From Actinomycetes bacterium (lineage in GTDB: Bacteria > Actinomycetota > Acidimicrobiia > Acidimicrobiales > RAAP-2): a stretch of 64,000 nt of DNA. Both the position numbers and the translations under genes were made by a program. The notes beneath the pieces were generated by a model. That model searched no databases. It saw only the letters and a list, made by a program, of their open reading frames with translations, and was not told the origin of the DNA. Numbering within the stretch: position 1 is the stretch's first letter; each line of letters opens with the position of its first letter. The stretch covers positions 1,849 to 65,848 of the forward strand of contig JAJZEN010000081.1 in assembly GCA_021828545.1 (NCBI GenBank), read 5' to 3'. Positions 15,133 to 34,281 of the stretch are shown here, piece by piece.

Positions 15133-16392
15133 GTGATGGCGAGTAGGTGGTCGCGGGGGCGACGTCGTGACCACACGCCACGGCCCAGTCTGCGCAATAC
15201 TTTCAGCGCACTGTCGATACGGCCGTATCGGCAGTGGTTCATCAGTCAGGTGCTATCGGCCTCGGGCACCATGACTCAGAGCGTGGCCCTGTCGTGGCTG
15301 GTGTTGCGACTGACGGGTAGTGGCGTCGACCTGGGACTCGTCACCACCTGTACCTTCGCCCCGATGTTGCTCGGAGGTCCGTGGGCCGGCGCACTCGTCG
15401 ATCGCGCGAATCGACGTCGCCTGCTCATCGTGACCCAGTGTCTCTACATCGTCCTCTCACTGACTCTCGCACTCGTGACCGCTACCGGAGTAACCCGCCT
15501 GTGGATGGTGCTGGTGGTGGCGCTGGCCTCGGGCTGCGTTGGTGCGCCCGACGCGGCCGCTCGTCAGGTGTACGCGATAGACCTCGTGGGACTCGAGTTC
15601 CTCACCAGTGCCGTGAGCTTGAACGAAGTGGTCCTCAACGCGTCGCGCGTCGTCGGTCCCGCCTTGGGCGGAGTACTCCTGGCGACCGCGGGCGTCACGG
15701 CGTGTTGTCTCGCCAACGCCGCTTCGTTCATTCCCCCTTTGATCGTTCTCTATCAGCACCGTCGCCTGGCACTCCCGGAGCGTCCAGTGTCGCCGCACCG
15801 TGATCACCTAATGATGGGGTTACGCTACGCGTGGCAGAACCGAACTATTCGTCTGGTGCTGTTGCTCGCGGCCGCGTCGGGCATGCTCTTTAACATGGGC
15901 GTGCCACTACCGTTGCTCGCCACCCGGACTTTCCATCTCGGTCCGGCTGGTTACGGACTGATGATGTCGGTCTTTGGGGCGGGCGGCATCGTGGGTGGCG
16001 TCTGCGCGGCGGCGGGACACCGAGCTCCGACGCGCGCCATGGTGGTGGTGTTGGCCGCGGTGACCGCCGGGACGGTCCTGGCGACCGCCCTGGCACGCAA
16101 CGTGACGGAGGTGTACCTAGGGCTGGTCGTGACGGGCTGGGCGTCGATCTGGTTCATCGCGCGCGCCAATGCTCTGGTGCAGTTCGAGTCCCCACCACAA
16201 TTGCGCGGACGAGTCATGGCCGTCTGGTCGATGGCGCTACCGGGACTGATGCCCGTGACGAGTCCTCTCGTGGGGTACGTCGCTGGCGCGCTGGGAGCGC
16301 GAGAGGGCTTCGGTCTCTCGGGCGCCGCTCTCGCCGTCCTGGCGCTGGCCGGAGTCTGGGGATCGCGTCCCCGTCGTGACGCGAGCGCGTGA
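15133..16392 (+). CDS. MFS transporter (H+ antiporter/DUF894-like)
   Basis: About 12 hydrophobic segments; GALVDRANRRRLL motif A; LRGRVMA. Start codon uncertain. Confidence 0.85.
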   Translation: MMASRWSRGRRRDHTPRPSLRNTFSALSIRPYRQWFISQVLSASGTMTQSVALSWLVLRLTGSGVDLGLVTTCTFAPMLLGGPWAGALVDRANRRRLLIVTQCLYIVLSLTLALVTATGVTRLWMVLVVALASGCVGAPDAAARQVYAIDLVGLEFLTSAVSLNEVVLNASRVVGPALGGVLLATAGVTACCLANAASFIPPLIVLYQHRRLALPERPVSPHRDHLMMGLRYAWQNRTIRLVLLLAAASGMLFNMGVPLPLLATRTFHLGPAGYGLMMSVFGAGGIVGGVCAAAGHRAPTRAMVVVLAAVTAGTVLATALARNVTEVYLGLVVTGWASIWFIARANALVQFESPPQLRGRVMAVWSMALPGLMPVTSPLVGYVAGALGAREGFGLSGAALAVLALAGVWGSRPRRDASA

Positions 16393-19432: not shown

Positions 19433-21253
<1,821 letters not shown>

Positions 21254-21303
21254 GACCTATCTACGCTAGTAGGCCCGGCACCCCGTCTCGGTAGGGCCCT
21301 GTC

Positions 21304-22107
21304 TCACGCGGCGAGGACGAGGGCGTGTCGGCGTTGGGCCACCGCGGTACGCAACAAGTCTCGCGCTCCGGCGCGCACGTTCTCCATGGTCCCGTCGACG
21401 CCCAGGACGAGTCCCGCGTCGGGCCACACACCGAGGTAACGGCGTGGCGCACGGCCGTGGGGGTCGGCCAGCGTCTCGACGACCAGGTCGCTTCGTAGCC
21501 CTGGACCAGTACTTTTACCGGGCTGACCGGATCGAACGCGCACGATAATCCGTCCAAAGTCGGTCGAGACGACGATGTCGCGTCGCCCGCGAAGTGTCGT
21601 ACGAGCACCCGCGAGGTCGACGTAGACGTCCGACGCCGCCACGGTCCACTCGAGGTCGTCGCCCGGCAAACATTCGAGCAATTGCGTCGCCCAATTCACC
21701 GCTTCGGCGGTGATCAGTCCCAAAATGGGGTGGTTCACGCTCGCTAGCCAGTGGCCCAGTGAGCCGGGTCGCGCGTAGCCCCGGGTCGCTCGCAGCAGTT
21801 GGTCCGCCAATTCGTCGCGTACGGCGCGCAAGATATCCTCGGGATCGCCCTGCACCCGGCGCAACGCATTGTTTCCCAGAATCCGGCGCGCGGTGGCGGG
21901 GGACCAGGCGAAGGGCGTCGAGGGTCGACCCGCGTGTTCCACCATCCACGCGTCTAGACGGCGGCGCTCGGTCGCGGGGACGGCGCGAAATCGATCGGCC
22001 AAGGACGTTCGATGCTCCTCTTCGATCCACGCGGCGTCGCGCGGCGCCCCTTCGATCACCTCGGCGAGGTTTCGGACATTCAGGCGACGCTGGATCAGGG
22101 AACTCAC
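21304..22107 (-). CDS. Hypothetical protein, degenerate PD-(D/E)XK (RecB-like) fold
   Basis: LRGRRDIVV...RIIVRVRSG aligns by eye with the GRxD...(D/E)xKxG motifs; the motif III residues are substituted. Confidence 0.55.
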   Translation of the reverse strand: MSSLIQRRLNVRNLAEVIEGAPRDAAWIEEEHRTSLADRFRAVPATERRRLDAWMVEHAGRPSTPFAWSPATARRILGNNALRRVQGDPEDILRAVRDELADQLLRATRGYARPGSLGHWLASVNHPILGLITAEAVNWATQLLECLPGDDLEWTVAASDVYVDLAGARTTLRGRRDIVVSTDFGRIIVRVRSGQPGKSTGPGLRSDLVVETLADPHGRAPRRYLGVWPDAGLVLGVDGTMENVRAGARDLLRTAVAQRRHALVLAA

Positions 22108-22901
22108 GGCGTCACCGTCGCACGGGCAACGACGTCCACCACATCCCCTACGGCGCGTACCAGCAGGGCGTGGTCCACGTCCAGGGCCCAGAACTCGCCC
22201 GTGGCGCTCGAGAACGCCACGGTGCGTAGGGGCACTACGCCGGACCTCAGAGTCTGAACCAGCGCGTGGTAGCGCATCGCTCGTTCGGCGCCCGCCCCTA
22301 GGGGTGACGTCGTGATGTCCACGAGGGCGACATTGGCTACCGTGGCGCGATTGGATCCCACCATGAGGTCGATGACGTCGCGCAGTTCAGCGTTCCCGCC
22401 CGCGAGGAGCTGACGCACCCGCAACGACGTTCGCGGTAGCCAGCTACTCGGGATGGTTCCGAGCCCGCTGAGAAGGACGCGGTAGTGCGCCTCCACGTCC
22501 GCGCGCAGGCGTGCGGACTGGTCGGGGTCAAGATGCAACACGGCGTCGAGCAATGGATCACGCGGGCGATCGCCGCGCCACGCGGTCACCGCGTCGTCGA
22601 AGGGGTCCTCGACGTGCACCTGCGCGACCAGGAGTCGAAAGATCGTGGAGACGATCATGCCGCGCGCGTGGCTCAAGGTGCCGTCACCGAGATCACGCCC
22701 GGATCCGGTGCCGCGCAGATTGGCGCTCGAGATAATCAAGGGCGTCACCCGGAGTTGGGGACCGAGCAGTTCAAAGAAGTGGTCCTCGAGGAGCGCGCGT
22801 AGGCCCGCCGCACTCGCGTCGTCACGAGGGGGGCGCCGCGAGCGATCGCCACGGACGACGTCGGCGAGAAGTGCGACTGTGGTCGGGATCAGCATGGTCA
22901 C
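22104..22901 (-). CDS. Hypothetical protein, degenerate PD-(D/E)XK (RecB-like) fold
   Basis: LRDVIDLMVG...VALVDITTS...MRYHALVQTLRSG..P; the catalytic Lys position is Thr. Confidence 0.6.
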   Translation of the reverse strand: MTMLIPTTVALLADVVRGDRSRRPPRDDASAAGLRALLEDHFFELLGPQLRVTPLIISSANLRGTGSGRDLGDGTLSHARGMIVSTIFRLLVAQVHVEDPFDDAVTAWRGDRPRDPLLDAVLHLDPDQSARLRADVEAHYRVLLSGLGTIPSSWLPRTSLRVRQLLAGGNAELRDVIDLMVGSNRATVANVALVDITTSPLGAGAERAMRYHALVQTLRSGVVPLRTVAFSSATGEFWALDVDHALLVRAVGDVVDVVARATVTP

Positions 22902-22945
22902 GGATCAACTTTGACGGCGTGCTGTGACATCGCTAGCCTGACGTC

Positions 22946-23068
22946 GTGTTCGCCACCACTTTCACCCCCGCCTTCGACATCGTCTTTGGCATCTTCGTCG
23001 TGGCCATCGTCGTCTTGTCGGTCCTGACGATTCGATTCGTGGTTCGACGGGACCGCCGCCGCCGTTAG
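22946..23068 (+). CDS. 40-aa single-pass membrane microprotein (absent from the ORF track)
   Basis: MFATTFTPAFDIVFGIFVVAIVVLSVLTIRFVVRRDRRRR*; GC-rich third codon positions; TAGCCT box 6 nt before the GTG. Confidence 0.7.
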   Translation: MFATTFTPAFDIVFGIFVVAIVVLSVLTIRFVVRRDRRRR

Positions 23069-23325
23069 TGGTCGAGCCCGCCGTCGCCGTCGAGGCGCTT
23101 TTGGACTTCTTTCAATTCCCGATCGAGGTCGGCGATCGCTCGTTCGAGGACCGACAGTCGCGAGGAGAGCGACTCATCGACCCGATCATCGACGCGCCGA
23201 TCCACTTGCTCGCGAAGTCGAGAATCAATTGAATCCACCAGCGGCTGAGCGAGATGCTTTAGTCGAGTAAGGAGGTCCTGATTCGACTCACTCGTCGCGT
23301 CCGAAGAAGTTGAGGCGTCGCTCAC
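23065..23325 (-). CDS. 86-aa coiled-coil hypothetical protein
   Basis: Heptad-like LSVLERAIADLDRELKEVQKRL; TAGGCT box 6 nt before the GTG. Confidence 0.7.
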   Translation of the reverse strand: MSDASTSSDATSESNQDLLTRLKHLAQPLVDSIDSRLREQVDRRVDDRVDESLSSRLSVLERAIADLDRELKEVQKRLDGDGGLDH

Positions 23326-23364
23326 TACCCCAGCCTAGGACTGGCGACGGCGGTCCCGTCGACA

Positions 23365-25425
23365 TTACGGCGCACAGTAGACCCCGGCGTTGAATTGCAG
23401 GGTGTTGTACTGGCCCGACCACGGCGGACTCACCAGGGTGTTCTCTTGGGCGCGTAACGCCGACGTGGGTGAGCACGTCGCGTTGAAGGCGATGTAACCC
23501 AAGATGTTGTGCCCGTTGGACCCGGGGACTCGCACTGGCCCCCCGGCCCCGAAGGCGATCGCTTCGAAGACGGGCAGGGGGGAGTTGGTGAGTCCGTAGT
23601 TGGCGTACTGTGACTGTTCGGCGTAGATTCCCGGACGCAACGCGGGGTCGACGTCACGAAGACCAGTGGACCAACCGCTGATCAGGGCCGACCAGTACGT
23701 GGCGTACTTTCGCAGCGTCGCCTTCGAGGAGCCGCCCGGCGCGTCCAGGGCCGAGTGGTTGTCGGGGTACCCCTCAGGGTCGAGAATGACCCAGTTGGGT
23801 TTGATGCCAACGCCGTGAAGGTGGTATTGGTCGATTTGTTGCGCGACCCATTGACCGGCTAGGAATCCGTGACTGTAATACGAGGACACGGTCTGGTCCG
23901 CCGAGGTCAAGGGTCCACTCACCGTCCAGAACGAGAGCCACGTCTCGCGTCTCTTCGCCGCCAAGATGCTCTTGCCCATGAGGAAGTCGGGCGATTTGGT
24001 GAGCGGCGTGGGCGGCGTGAAGCCCACCCAGGGTGCGCTCAGCGTGCCGAGACCACCGGTCTCCGAGATGATGGGCCAACCGTCGGTCACCGCTCGACTC
24101 CAGTCGTTAGGAGGAATCGCGTAGACCCCGACGCCGTGGGGCGAGACATTGCCGTTACCGGTGGCGAAGAGTTCCAGTGACGACCCGCCCTGCACGCCGC
24201 TCACGTTGGCCGTGGACGCCAGCGTGGTACCGGCGTCCTGGGAGACGTCGGTACTCGTCCACACGCTCGAAGGGGCAACGAGTGAGTAGTCGTAGAGATC
24301 GCCGAAATTCTGTGCGCGTCCCGCTACGTTGACCGACGACGCACTCGCTCCGAGAAACAAGGAACCCTCCCACAGGGGCGAGCCCGCAATGAGGGAGGTC
24401 AGATCGATGTACTTCCAGGTGGGGGCCACAGTGCTCACGCGAGGCACCAGACGCGCGGACACCCCCGTGAGCAGTGGTGACGCATGGGTCACGCTCGTGG
24501 TGCTCGCCGAAAAGAGTTGCACGTGGCCCAGGGAGTCCAGGGTCGCCAAGTAAATATTGGTTCCCGACGTGGCAATGTTCAGTGATCCCGTACTCGCGGG
24601 CGCCGAAGCCAACGCGGTTAGGTCGCTGACGGTCCACGCGCTCGCACCGGCGACGGGTTGGGTGAAGAATTCCACGTGGCCCGCGTCCGTGGTGGCCGCG
24701 AAAGCGTTGGTGATGCCGGTCATGGCGACGGGGTCATTGAGGAGGGTGGGTGAATTCGTCGCGCGCGACACGTTCAGAGCGACCCCCACTTGGGGTGGCT
24801 GGGATAATTGATTCCACCGCAGCGGGATTGCCGTGGCGTTACCCTTGTTTGATCGATCGAAAATGACGCCTGACGTGCCCGACACACTTACGCTCGGCAG
24901 ACCTGGAGTCATCGGGACGTGACTCTGCACCGTGATGTCGGTCACCACGTAGGGCGGGCTCGCTACGGTGACGTCGTTCGCGTGCCGTGGACTTCGTCCC
25001 AGGACGTTGGAGATCAAGATGAGTCGATCCTTGGCGCTGACGTAGACGACGTCGACGTTCCCCCACGGATCGAAAAAGACGTTAGGGTCGGCGGCCGGTG
25101 CGGGGGCGCCGGTGAGGGACGTGACATCGTGAAACGACGAAGTGCCACTCGCGTTCTTCACGTAGAGACCCAAGTCCCCGTCGTCGAGGCGCGCGGCCAA
25201 GGCGACTTCACCGTCGCCCGATACGCCGTGCGCGGTGCCCAGAATTGAATGACCATTCAACTCCTGCGCGAATGGTTGGGTATTCCACGTCGAGGGGGCA
25301 CTACTGGAGTACTCGTAGAGGGGAAGAGCGCCACTCGAGGGAGCCGAGGTCGGCAATCCCACCGCGGGGAGGGTCGCACCGATGATGACGACATTGGCCA
25401 TCAGCGTTGTTCGTCGAAACCTCAC
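23365..25425 (-). CDS. Secreted protein: repeat/propeller-like N-domain plus GH25/DUF1906-like C-domain
   Basis: Signal peptide; repeated W/F-x-x-x-D-[LV]-T units; C-terminal WVILDPEG and RPGIYA motifs. ORF is secure, function is inferred. Confidence 0.6.
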   Translation of the reverse strand: MRFRRTTLMANVVIIGATLPAVGLPTSAPSSGALPLYEYSSSAPSTWNTQPFAQELNGHSILGTAHGVSGDGEVALAARLDDGDLGLYVKNASGTSSFHDVTSLTGAPAPAADPNVFFDPWGNVDVVYVSAKDRLILISNVLGRSPRHANDVTVASPPYVVTDITVQSHVPMTPGLPSVSVSGTSGVIFDRSNKGNATAIPLRWNQLSQPPQVGVALNVSRATNSPTLLNDPVAMTGITNAFAATTDAGHVEFFTQPVAGASAWTVSDLTALASAPASTGSLNIATSGTNIYLATLDSLGHVQLFSASTTSVTHASPLLTGVSARLVPRVSTVAPTWKYIDLTSLIAGSPLWEGSLFLGASASSVNVAGRAQNFGDLYDYSLVAPSSVWTSTDVSQDAGTTLASTANVSGVQGGSSLELFATGNGNVSPHGVGVYAIPPNDWSRAVTDGWPIISETGGLGTLSAPWVGFTPPTPLTKSPDFLMGKSILAAKRRETWLSFWTVSGPLTSADQTVSSYYSHGFLAGQWVAQQIDQYHLHGVGIKPNWVILDPEGYPDNHSALDAPGGSSKATLRKYATYWSALISGWSTGLRDVDPALRPGIYAEQSQYANYGLTNSPLPVFEAIAFGAGGPVRVPGSNGHNILGYIAFNATCSPTSALRAQENTLVSPPWSGQYNTLQFNAGVYCAP

Positions 25426-25506
25426 TCGGATCCTTTGCTTAGGGGGAGACGTCCAGCGCCCGGAACGCGCGTACCCAGCCTACCGGCCGTGATTTTGTGA
25501 ATTTGA

Positions 25507-27852
25507 TTAGGGGAGCGTGGTGAAGCGAATCGCGGACGACACTGGGCTGTAGCCGATGCCGTTTTTCGCGCGGAGTCGAATTACGTACACCGTGGACTTC
25601 GTGAGGTTCGTGAGGAGCAAACTCGTGGCATTACCGGGATATGAGTGCCACGTGCGCTCACCATCGGAGCTGACCTGCAGGGCCTCGACAAAGGGGGCGG
25701 TTGAGCGATGCGGCGCCACCGTAATCACCGCACCGGTGGCGCGCGTCACCACGCGGGTCACCGAGGGGGTGAGTGGCGTCTGTTCGCTGAGCGGCTGGGG
25801 GTGAAAGTTGATCTTCGACGTGTAGAGGAGCGCCCCATTGAGTTTGATCGTCAGTGAGACCGGACCGGGTTCCGACGTCGTCAGGGTGAACGCGGCGGCG
25901 CCCGTCGCGTCACTCGTCACGTTGTAGGTGGCGTGTCCATTACCGTGCGTGCTCGAGGGATCCGCGTCGAGCACAATGTGCCCAGCGGATGATTTGGCAA
26001 TCACGGTGACCGACGAATCCAGAACGGGACTCCCGTTGGCGTCGCGCAGGGAGACCACCAAGTGTGAGGGGGCGTTGATGATCGACGTCTTGGTGAACGA
26101 AATGAGGGCGCTCTTGGCGACACTGACCGGACTCGGGCATAGGTCGTTGACGAACGTGGCGCTCGGGCTGCCCAGTCCCGAGGCCATGTCGTACCCGGGA
26201 CCGGCGGCGTAGACCCCGGTTCCCTTTAGGTCATTGTTGCCAGTGGTGACGTCAACAAACGCCGTCGACGACCGGGCCAGGCTGTAGAGCGTGGGATTGA
26301 TGAATCCCAGACGCGCGACGCCACAGACTTGGGCACCCACGGCTACGAGGGCCCCCACTAGGGGAGCCCCGATGGATGTTCCTCCGACCGACGTCCAGTT
26401 CGTCACGGCGGGGTCGGCCTTGGCGGTGAAGTTCTGCATGAATCCCGTCCCGGGGTCCGCCATTACCGAGAGGTCCGGGACCATGCGCATGGTGTCGGCC
26501 GCACTAATGCCCGGGCCACTCTGCCAGAGAGGGCGTGACCAGATTTGTGACATGCCGCCGCCGCTCGCGCCGCCGTTGGCGTTCCACACCGTCTCCACCA
26601 CCGGGTTGGCGATGGACGTGACCGAGAGTCCGCCAACACCGGTGACGAAGGGCTGTGACGCGGGATCGTCCACGGCGGGCGCATTACTCGTGATGCCAGT
26701 GCAGTCGGAGGATCCCTGGTCACCCGAGGCCGCGATGACCGTTTGGCCCTGTGCCGCCATTTGTTCGAACAACACGTGTTCGGCGGCCACGGCGCCGGTG
26801 GGGTCGATCTCGCAGTCACCCCAGGACGTGGTGACGATGGACGCGGTGTTGTCGTTAGCGATTCTCGCGTAGAGGTCGACCGCAGCGGTAGGGGTATTGG
26901 GGGCCTGATATACCTCGAGCGTCGCGCCCGGCGCCAGCGCGCCGGCTTCTTCGACGTCGAGCGTGGCCTCGTCGCTGAAGCCCCCGGTCGTTCCACCGTC
27001 GACGTTGACGTTACTAATCGACGGCGCTAGGCCGTAGCACGAGAAGTAGTTGGTGGCGTCGGTCGGGTCGTATTGGCCGAGTTCGTAGATCGCGATGGTT
27101 TGACCGACGCCGGTCTTGCCCGCGGCCCAGGCACTCGAAAGTCCGTAGAGTTGCGCCTGTTGCTGAACGGAGTAACCCCCGAGCGTGTTGGGGATGTTGG
27201 TGCCACTGGACTGCGCCCCTGGGCACGTGGCCGCGGTGGCCACCGTCACGTGCGGGCGTCGCCCGGCGTGCGAGATGAGTTGAGGAGTCAGTGACCGCAC
27301 GCTCGAGAGTCCGACGATCGAGGTCACGTCTCGCGCGATGCTCGCGGGCAAGGTGGCCGCGCTCGCGAATTGTGCGCGTAGGCCTCCCGTGGCGAGACGT
27401 ACGGTCTCCACGGGGGTCGCGAATGCGTGAGCGATGTTTGACGTGCGACCCGTCATTTCTAAAATCGTGTGTCCCCTCGTGAGCGAGCGCTCGTGCAGAC
27501 CGAAACGCGCCAGGTACGAACGTACCGCGTTGATGCTGGCGTCGCTGGCGCCAAATCGTGCAGCGAACTCCGCGGGCGTGAGGAAGTGTCGATAGTTCGC
27601 TGACGCGGAGTTAGTCAGTCCACTGAGGTAGCGACGTAGGCCTGTGGGGTTCGAGAGCGCGAGCGTCACGTCAAAGTTCGACTCGATGGGCGTCGATCCG
27701 ATCGTCGCGTTCACGGGCACCGCGCTGGACCCAGCGACGACGACCCGTGCTTGGGCGGCTTGAGCCACGTTGGACAGGGGCAGGGTGAGTGCCGACGTGA
27801 CGATACTGGCGAGGAAGAGTGGCGCCAGAAACCGGCGCGAGGGGGACGTCAT
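25507..27852 (-). CDS. Secreted S53 (sedolisin/kumamolisin) protease with Ig-like and FN3 domains
   Basis: Pro-domain (HFLTPAEFAARFG); EATLDVE (Glu/Asp), SGDQG, GGTSIGAP (Ser) and GYDMASGLGSP; C-terminal YVIRLRAKNGIGYS. Confidence 0.92.
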   Translation of the reverse strand: MTSPSRRFLAPLFLASIVTSALTLPLSNVAQAAQARVVVAGSSAVPVNATIGSTPIESNFDVTLALSNPTGLRRYLSGLTNSASANYRHFLTPAEFAARFGASDASINAVRSYLARFGLHERSLTRGHTILEMTGRTSNIAHAFATPVETVRLATGGLRAQFASAATLPASIARDVTSIVGLSSVRSLTPQLISHAGRRPHVTVATAATCPGAQSSGTNIPNTLGGYSVQQQAQLYGLSSAWAAGKTGVGQTIAIYELGQYDPTDATNYFSCYGLAPSISNVNVDGGTTGGFSDEATLDVEEAGALAPGATLEVYQAPNTPTAAVDLYARIANDNTASIVTTSWGDCEIDPTGAVAAEHVLFEQMAAQGQTVIAASGDQGSSDCTGITSNAPAVDDPASQPFVTGVGGLSVTSIANPVVETVWNANGGASGGGMSQIWSRPLWQSGPGISAADTMRMVPDLSVMADPGTGFMQNFTAKADPAVTNWTSVGGTSIGAPLVGALVAVGAQVCGVARLGFINPTLYSLARSSTAFVDVTTGNNDLKGTGVYAAGPGYDMASGLGSPSATFVNDLCPSPVSVAKSALISFTKTSIINAPSHLVVSLRDANGSPVLDSSVTVIAKSSAGHIVLDADPSSTHGNGHATYNVTSDATGAAAFTLTTSEPGPVSLTIKLNGALLYTSKINFHPQPLSEQTPLTPSVTRVVTRATGAVITVAPHRSTAPFVEALQVSSDGERTWHSYPGNATSLLLTNLTKSTVYVIRLRAKNGIGYSPVSSAIRFTTLP

Positions 27853-33123: not shown

Positions 33124-33159
33124 CCGTACTACGAACACTTGTTCGTAGTACGGTACATT
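33124..33159 (+). promoter_or_regulatory. LexA (SOS) box upstream of recA
   Basis: CGAAC-ACTT-GTTCG (GAAC-N4-GTTC at 33133-33144) inside a perfect 13-bp-arm palindrome; TACATT -10-like box at 33154-33159. Confidence 0.85.
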
Positions 33160-33231
33160 GCAGCGAAGAACGACCGATGTGACTGGGGGCCGATAGCGTG
33201 CCCCTCGTGACGAAGAACAAGGAGACATCCA

Positions 33232-34281
33232 ATGGCGACCGACGACCGCGCTAAGGCCCTCGAATCAGCGCTGGGCCAGATCGAGAAGCAGTTCGGCAAG
33301 GGCTCGATCATGCGAATGGGTGAGAACCTGCACATGAATATCGAGTCCATCCCGACGGGAGCACTCGCCCTGGACATGGCCCTGGGTATTGGCGGACTAC
33401 CGCGAGGGCGTATCGTGGAGCTCTACGGACCGGAGTCTTCAGGAAAATCTACGCTGGCGATGCACGTGGTGGCCGAAGCCCAGCGAAATGGTGGAGTGTG
33501 CGCCTACATCGACGCGGAGCACGCCATGGACCCCATCTACGCGCGAGCGATCGGTGTGAACGTCGACGACCTCTTGATCTCCCAGCCCGACACCGGTGAG
33601 CAGGCCCTGGAGATTTGCGACATGTTGATTCGGTCGGGCGCCCTCGATGTCATCGTCATTGACTCGGTGGCCGCCTTGACACCGCGCGCCGAGATCGAAG
33701 GGGATATGGGAGATTCGCACGTCGGCCTGCAGGCACGTCTGATGAGTCAGGCCCTGCGCAAATTGACCGGTGGACTCTCGAAGTCCAATACCGTTGCGGT
33801 GTTCATTAACCAGTTGCGTGAGAAGATTGGCGTGATGTACGGATCGCCCGAGGTCACCCCCGGTGGTCGCGCGCTCAAGTTCTACTCCTCGGTACGCCTG
33901 GACATTCGTCGAATCGAGTCCATCAAGGACGGTACCGAGGTCGTGGGCAACCGTACGCGCGTCAAGGTCGTGAAAAACAAGTGTGCGGCGCCGTTCAAGC
34001 AGGCCGAGTTCGACATAATGTACGGCCAAGGCATCAGCCGCGAGGGCTCGGTGCTTGACGTGGCGGTCGAGCTCGGCTTCGTGAAGAAGGCTGGGGCCTG
34101 GTTTACTTACGAAGGTGAACAGATGGGCCAAGGCCGCGAGAACGTGAAGACCTTCCTCCGCGAGAATCCTCAGACGATGGCCGAGATCGACGGTCGAGTC
34201 CGTGAACACCTCGCCACCGCGTTGTTGCCCGACGTCGTCGGGGCCGAGGTGGATGTGGACGCCCCGTTAACGCTGGACTGA
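33232..34281 (+). CDS. recA: Recombinase A
   Basis: [20 protein letters not shown] and GGRALKFY motifs. No intein; recX does not follow. Confidence 0.99.

Follow-up and report, generated by a model that had tools for sequence, protein, structure and literature searches.

Nuclease-derived pseudo-enzymes are well known in eukaryotic DNA repair, where they include ERCC1, Eme1 and FAAP24. XPF-ERCC1, Mus81-Eme1 and FANCM-FAAP24 are heterodimers of nuclease and pseudonuclease subunits, and in FANCM-FAAP24 both partners are inactive. Those known from bacteria are for the most part built as domains into large machines (RecC and AddB, for example). RecC contains a dead RecB-like nuclease domain, and subunits of AddB/AdnA type have inactive modules; both have lost catalysis and are kept as DNA-strand-binding or channel modules. 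In this study, we analyzed a pair of genes, designated A and B, in a 64,000-nucleotide stretch of DNA (hereafter, the window) from an uncultured member of Acidimicrobiales (GenBank assembly GCA_021828545.1, contig JAJZEN010000081.1, positions 1,849 to 65,848 of the forward strand; positions below are those of the window). Gene A (22104-22901) and gene B (21304-22107) are both located on the minus strand and encode predicted proteins of 265 and 267 aa. As the initial annotation had stated, the two open reading frames (ORFs) are joined by a GTGA overlap, which contains the stop codon of A and the start codon of B (22104-22107).

The best-supported reading of these sequences is the one put forward in the initial annotation, in which A and B are a heterodimeric pseudo-nuclease. 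The fold predicted for both proteins is shared with Cas4/RecB-like nucleases of family PF12705, including ACE1 (9iac), Cas4 SSO0001 (4ic1) and domains of Dna2, AdnAB and AddAB. Like these enzymes, A and B keep the motif II Asp; their size (~265 aa) is that of ACE1, and their descent from canonical members of the family can be demonstrated by profile searches. In contrast to them, A and B lack the Lys of the (D/E)xK motif, the Fe4S4 cluster held by one plus three Cys residues, the motif-I His and Glu, and the active-site Tyr. PF12705 enzymes are also single enzymes or domains of helicase-nucleases, whereas A and B are a fixed pair of diverged paralogues.

The logic proposed for A-B is that of the eukaryotic complexes, in which a nuclease fold was duplicated and the dead subunit or subunits were kept as a DNA-structure-binding heterodimer in repair. 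As in the XPF-ERCC1 type, two diverged paralogues of one nuclease fold are inherited together. However, the eukaryotic proteins belong to the ERCC4 branch and A-B to the Cas4/RecB branch. Heterodimer formation and DNA binding are experimentally established for the XPF-ERCC1 type, whereas for A-B both of these, as well as nuclease loss and damage induction, are inferred from sequence. The RecC, AddB and AdnA-type modules likewise combine a RecB-type fold lacking catalysis with a related partner, as proposed here, but they are domains of large helicase-nuclease machines, whereas A and B are two small stand-alone proteins. The helicase partner whose absence the initial annotation had remarked on is indeed missing, in that an ORF and family scan of the locus found no helicase gene adjoining the pair.

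Predicted fold and active-site residues

Neither A nor B had a usable match in Pfam, NCBIfam or PADLOC. The PF12705 cut-off was reached by neither protein, and a whole-genome search with this profile misses both. Sequence-profile searches of PDB returned chance matches only, e.g., Rop and hepatitis C virus (HCV) E1. Homologues in a collection of 5.8 billion proteins (268 for A and 432 for B) are all annotated as hypothetical and come from metagenome-assembled genomes of Acidimicrobiales/Acidimicrobiaceae.

AlphaFold2 produced confident models of A (predicted local distance difference test, pLDDT, 89.0; predicted template modeling score, pTM, 0.87) and B (pLDDT 92.5, pTM 0.89). When these models were compared with PDB structures using Foldseek, A matched ACE1 best (9iac, E 1.3e-6), and the top match of B was Dna2 (5eax, E 1.2e-4). 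Both models matched ACE1, an Argonaute-associated protein of the Cas4 family, as well as Dna2, AdnAB, AddAB, Cas4 SSO0001, RecBCD, RecE and MGME1, and 1w36 was among the matches of both. These matches had a probability of 1.00, yet their TM-scores were only moderate (0.3-0.47). Because confident models of both proteins match Cas4-family and RecB-like nucleases, the assignment of A and B to the PD-(D/E)XK Cas4/RecB fold is supported at the level of predicted structure. The resemblance to a RecB/AddB/Cas4-like nuclease core noted in the initial annotation is thus borne out by the predicted fold.

Conservation of individual residues was counted in 80 species-level loci from GTDB genomes (81 sequences of A including that of the window, and 79 of B), and the motif assignments were checked by alignment to canonical homologues. 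The former active-site core of A (residues 173-219; 22245-22385, minus strand) reads LRDVIDLMVG...VALVDITTS...MRYHALVQTLR. Here, motif II is D178, present in 81 of 81 sequences, and D175 occupies the position of an ancestral Gly. Motif III is D195-I-T197, in which Thr replaces the Lys; D195 and T197 are each found in 81/81. The ancestral Tyr is replaced by H212, which, like H139, is invariant (81/81). Of the motif-I residues, the His corresponds to S85, a variable position, and the Glu to R89.

The corresponding core of B (residues 172-213; 21469-21594, minus strand) reads LRGRRDIVV...IIVRVRSG...DLVVETL. Motif II is G174-R-R-D177, with D177 in 77 of the 79 sequences and Glu in the other two. 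Motif III is R190-V-R192 (R190 in 79/79 and R192 in 78/79), the ancestral Tyr is replaced by D207 (79/79), and the motif-I His and Glu correspond to N79 and R83. B of the window contains 36 Arg residues, many of them at the former active site.

The Lys of motif III is present in 100% of canonical relatives, and its replacement by Thr is found in 100% of A sequences of the window clade. One N-terminal and three C-terminal Cys residues that bind a 4Fe-4S cluster are a feature of the Cas4 family as defined in PMC12094033. Canonical relatives carry these residues as C...CxxCx5-6C, whereas A of the window has no Cys and B has one. A also has no Lys, so rescue of its site by a relocated Lys, a possibility that the initial annotation had raised, is excluded; the single Lys of B, K198, is specific to the window clade. 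All peptide strings quoted in that annotation were located in the two cores, and the states described there, i.e., a retained motif II Asp in both proteins, Thr for Lys in A and Arg at both motif III positions in B, proved to be fixed or nearly so across the clade. From these residues, we infer that A is no longer catalytic by the canonical mechanism.

The A-B pair and its relatives in Acidimicrobiia

The initial annotation had made its proposal dependent on conservation of the pair, and this was found throughout: every one of the 79 related loci with sufficiently long contigs contains both A and B. In 78 of these 79 loci the two genes overlap by NTGA, and the GTGA overlap in the window suggests translational coupling. 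Median ratios of nonsynonymous to synonymous substitution rates (dN/dS, NG86) were 0.147 for A and 0.12 for B, indicating that both genes are under purifying selection. The proteins have opposite charge, with an isoelectric point of 6.4 for A (family median 5.5) and 10.2 for B (family median 10.6).

Natural fusions of A and B in a single ORF occur in at least three other lineages. These are P0353 (574 aa; L110, 272-1996), P0343 (548 aa; L111, 1873-3519) and P0330 (680 aa; L112, 6001-8043, and L113, 2687-4729), the last being present in four contigs from separate samples. Because of purifying selection, the conserved overlap, the natural fusions and the opposite charge, A and B are most probably the subunits of an obligate heterodimer, one acidic and the other Arg-rich. 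P0296, an apparent A-B fusion close to the window clade, was rejected as a frameshifted chimera.

The relationship between A and B was unproven with narrow data, i.e., by direct BLASTP of A against B or by hhalign with narrow alignments (E 0.29). Broad profiles of the two families, with distant members included, aligned over 230 columns with a probability of 98.6% (E 1.2e-15), and A of the window genome was recovered with the broad B profile (E 4.8e-4). In addition, canonical single-copy homologues are matched by both A and B profiles. In the resulting alignment, D178 of A is equivalent to D177 of B (motif II), D195-I-T197 to R190-V-R192 (motif III), and H212 to D207 (the ancestral Tyr). By this profile evidence, A and B are paralogues.

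When genomes were searched with the A profile, a single copy was present in that of the window, and 36 of the 201 genomes examined from the class likewise had one copy each. Relatives found with it outside the GTDB family of the window are single genes with canonical Cas4-like hallmarks. Canonical relatives in Acidimicrobiia carry GxxxHxxxE, GxhD, (D/E)-h-K-(S/T)-G and RFYAL motifs as well as the one N-terminal and three C-terminal Cys residues, and distant canonical homologues scored 27-45 bits against PF12705 (cut-off 22). From 1.8 billion representative proteins, the A profile retrieved 551 clusters; the family is unannotated and has no Pfam entry.

In the phylogenetic tree, A nests in a grade that leads from canonical proteins to those that retain the Lys and the Cys residues, then to those with the Lys but without Cys, then to degenerate forms, and finally to the clade with a DxTTS motif, which includes the window. 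Outside the window clade, motif III is highly variable (EVK, SVR, RVR, DVR, DVC and EAE). B proteins and the B halves of fusions form one clade with 100% support and a long stem.

In loci L114, L115/L116 and L117, a B homologue (E 1e-16 to 1e-22 with the A2 profile) overlaps the 3' end of the Lys-retaining A gene. The A protein of L117 has four Cys residues and a weak PF12705 match. Motif III in the B homologues of these pairs is T/F/V-V-M, and an overlapping B is also found beside three further degenerate A representatives. Lys-retaining A is therefore already paired with a B whose motif III is degenerate, which argues that B was non-catalytic from the start, that A was the catalytic partner and that the doubly degenerate state is derived.

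The pairs of L114-L117 consist of the same A and B families in the same gene order, overlapping or tightly juxtaposed, with B already dead, and some of them have the same type of leaderless promoter as the window pair (see below). They differ in that their A keeps E-V-K-S-G (and, in L117, also four Cys), whereas A of the window is degenerate, so that neither subunit of the window pair is canonical. Their gene context is also different: a patatin-like gene and an Lhr helicase gene in L114-L117, and typA in the window. The L114-L117 pairs are divergent from a patatin-like phospholipase gene and the Lhr gene, and L115 is also near a gene for an Fpg/Nei glycosylase.

Judged by these sequences, the window pair is the terminal, fully degenerate state of a broader, undescribed family of Cas4-like pairs in Acidimicrobiia with an active A and a dead B. 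The initial annotation had regarded the pair as a new system with no described counterpart. Literature searches revealed no described Cas4-like pair near Lhr or patatin genes or upstream of typA; the pair is not isolated, however, but belongs to the wider family of active/dead pairs. Its history can be read in living lineages, from a single Fe-S nuclease through an active/dead pair, loss of the cluster and loss of the Lys to new invariant pocket residues. This series is a natural experiment on converting a nuclease active site into something else.

Proposed function and alternatives

A promoter-like element, TGTCAC-N10-CAAAGT (22908-22929, minus strand), is located directly 5' of A and is followed after six nucleotides by the GTG start codon; there is no -35 element. 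Of 78 orthologous loci, 62 carry this element. In these 62 loci, each base of TGTC is 98-100% conserved, bases 2 (A) and 6 (T) of the -10 element are 100% conserved, and 6-7 nt separate the element from the start codon. Since the start codon of A is only 6 nt 3' of the element, the transcript is probably leaderless. The mycobacterial PafBC promoter is described as tGTCgg(N10)tA(N3)T with a strictly conserved GTC and no -35 element (PMC8635444). The element 5' of A has PafBC geometry, and this suggests that A-B takes part in the actinobacterial DNA damage response through PafBC-type induction. The initial annotation had put forward a nucleic-acid sensor, a scaffold or an inhibitor/decoy as possible roles, and a PafBC-type promoter would place such a role in the DNA damage response. 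The same geometry was found 5' of 8 of 22 more distant family members, including the Lys-retaining pairs of L114 and L117; the eight also include a single gene of canonical type, which has TGTCGGTG...TACGAT.

The motif TGTCA[CG]-N10-TA-N3-T occurs seven times in the window's own genome (G000), in six cases just 5' of an ORF, as compared with one of six matches in a reversed-genome control. Four of these sites precede, in order, a stand-alone 267-aa PF12705 nuclease (C41:19730, minus strand; leaderless), RmuC (C122:11631, minus strand), SSB (C2:6219, plus strand) and an ORF of 100 aa without known function (C151:10556, plus strand), and the organism could have a PafBC-like regulon with these four genes at its core. 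Two adjacent ORFs with WYL domains (C34:3178-4362, minus strand) are candidates for pafB and pafC. A strict RecA-NDp core, TGTC[AG]GTG-N8-TAN3T, had no match in this genome. Membership of A-B in a PafBC regulon is probable on the basis of these motifs; because genome-wide enrichment is weak (see below), the idea draws on conservation among orthologues and on a few informative genes. The unannotated A/B family seems to be part of the actinobacterial PafBC damage response.

We think it rather likely that A and B are a dead Cas4-like heterodimer that binds DNA and is induced by DNA damage. According to this explanation, the ancestor would be a single Cas4-like iron-sulfur PD-(D/E)XK nuclease, whose canonical form persists in other Acidimicrobiia. 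Duplication would have produced a two-subunit unit, with A as the subunit that cuts and B as a partner without catalytic activity from the outset. A of the window lineage would then have lost the motif III Lys (now T197), the four Fe-S Cys residues, the motif-I His and Glu, and the Tyr (now H212). Made together by means of the 4-bp overlap, A and B would form an obligate heterodimer that no longer cuts by the canonical mechanism. Most likely, it would bind DNA ends or single-stranded DNA, with the remodeled pockets as binding sites, and the PafBC-type leaderless promoter 5' of A would induce the pair in the DNA damage response. The practical consequences would be modest, as the hosts are uncultured Acidimicrobiales of peat and soil.

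Several observations weigh against this explanation. The -10 element in the A promoter mostly begins with C instead of T. Across the genome, TGTC is weakly enriched at the promoter offset (26 observed versus 15.5 expected), and recA in the window (33232-34281, plus strand) has a LexA box and no exact PafBC match. The invariant adjacency to typA is unexplained by a role in DNA repair. Finally, A keeps both acidic residues, D178 and D195, and has gained invariant His139, His212, Asp175 and Glu206 around the old site; the gained residues could form a new metal site and preserve some hydrolytic activity.

The last point leads to the alternative that survives best, i.e., that the pair is still an enzyme, which we consider possible but unlikely. 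A would have rebuilt a metal site from D178, D195, H212, H139, E206 and D175, and the part of the Lys would be taken by an Arg or by a water-mediated route; A would cut DNA or RNA or hydrolyze another phosphoester, and B would bind the substrate. Conservation is 100% for both carboxylates of the D...DxK site. Several new polar residues in or close to the former site are invariant as well (81/81 sequences), and working pockets typically show such a pattern more than decayed ones do. The basal pairs, with an intact A and a dead B, also make the active/dead architecture ancestral. On the other hand, the same positions vary across the wider paired clade (SVR, RVR, DVR, DVC and EAE at motif III, and Leu for the Tyr), therefore pointing to relaxed catalytic constraint before the window clade fixed its own set of residues. 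A also lacks any Lys, and we know of no active PD-(D/E)XK enzyme that has Thr in place of the motif III Lys.

A bolder form of the non-catalytic explanation, which we regard as quite doubtful, is that A-B is a fully non-catalytic, damage-induced sensor or adaptor composed of two dead Cas4-like folds. A DNA end, a 5'-phosphate or a damage-derived nucleotide signal would be read by the two pockets, Arg-lined in B and of Asp/His type in A, and the fixed location of the pair immediately before typA would couple this signal to the ribosome-associated GTPase TypA. If true, such a sensor would link DNA damage to translation in a way not known in any bacterium.

The typA gene (also known as bipA; 19433-21253, minus strand) codes for a translational GTPase with Pfam domains GTP_EFTU and BipA_C. 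It is found 3' of B in every locus that extends far enough, and the same order recurs in two distant lineages, with 14 bp between the L111 fusion and typA and 34 bp between B and typA in L121. This arrangement favors another possibility, namely that the pair is an accessory module of TypA/BipA that binds RNA or the ribosome, in which the fold has been re-used for rRNA and A, B and typA form one operon. The extremely basic character of B is in line with this idea, and so is the spacer between B and typA, which is only 38-50 nt long across loci (50 nt in the window, 21254-21303, minus strand) and in which a simple promoter and terminator scan found nothing relevant, with no predicted terminator and no Shine-Dalgarno sequence. 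However, the spacer contains a conserved element directly 5' of the typA ATG, CTA(C/G)TAGCGT(A/G)G(A/T)T(A/G)GGTC. Because this element provides a -10-like TAGCGT of its own, typA may be transcribed separately, from a near-leaderless promoter. In addition, typA is not a neighbor of the basal A-B pairs or of the L112 fusion, which are located near patatin and Lhr genes or near AdnAB-like genes, and the promoter of A resembles DNA damage promoters. Adjacency by itself is weak evidence here because the whole neighborhood is syntenic in the window clade. Overall, we find a TypA module very unlikely.

The view that A and B are independent or decaying, either as relics of a duplicated nuclease without a joint function or as a mobile toxin-antitoxin or defense module, could be based on the lost catalytic motifs and the lack of Pfam, NCBIfam and PADLOC matches, but it is strongly disfavored, to the point of being barely credible, by the low dN/dS values (0.12-0.15), dozens of invariant positions across 80 species, the conserved overlap and natural fusions, a base composition without anomaly at the locus, and the occurrence of the pair as a single copy at a fixed chromosomal position with conserved synteny.

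Neighboring genes

Upstream of A, on the same strand, are genes for an 86-aa coiled-coil ORF, a 686-aa secreted protein without a Pfam match and an S53 pro-kumamolisin peptidase (23065-27852, minus strand). This block is syntenic with the pair even in relatives with 48-50% identity in A.

A gene for an MFS_3/MFS_1 transporter (15133-16392, plus strand) is located ~5 kb downstream of the A-B pair. Transporters of this type are convergent to a canonical nuclease or a fusion in L019, L020, L023 and L112, and the one near the window pair looks like a remnant of ancestral synteny. In L112, the transporter that is convergent to the fusion is itself beside two large genes (1228 and 1005 aa) that resemble AdnAB, of which the 1005-aa gene matches PF12705.

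Farther away in the window, recA is preceded by an actinobacterial LexA box, CGAACACTTGTTCG (~33140-33160). The sequence TGTCAGTC...TACGAGT, ~230 nt upstream, comes close to the PafBC element, but its spacing is imperfect.

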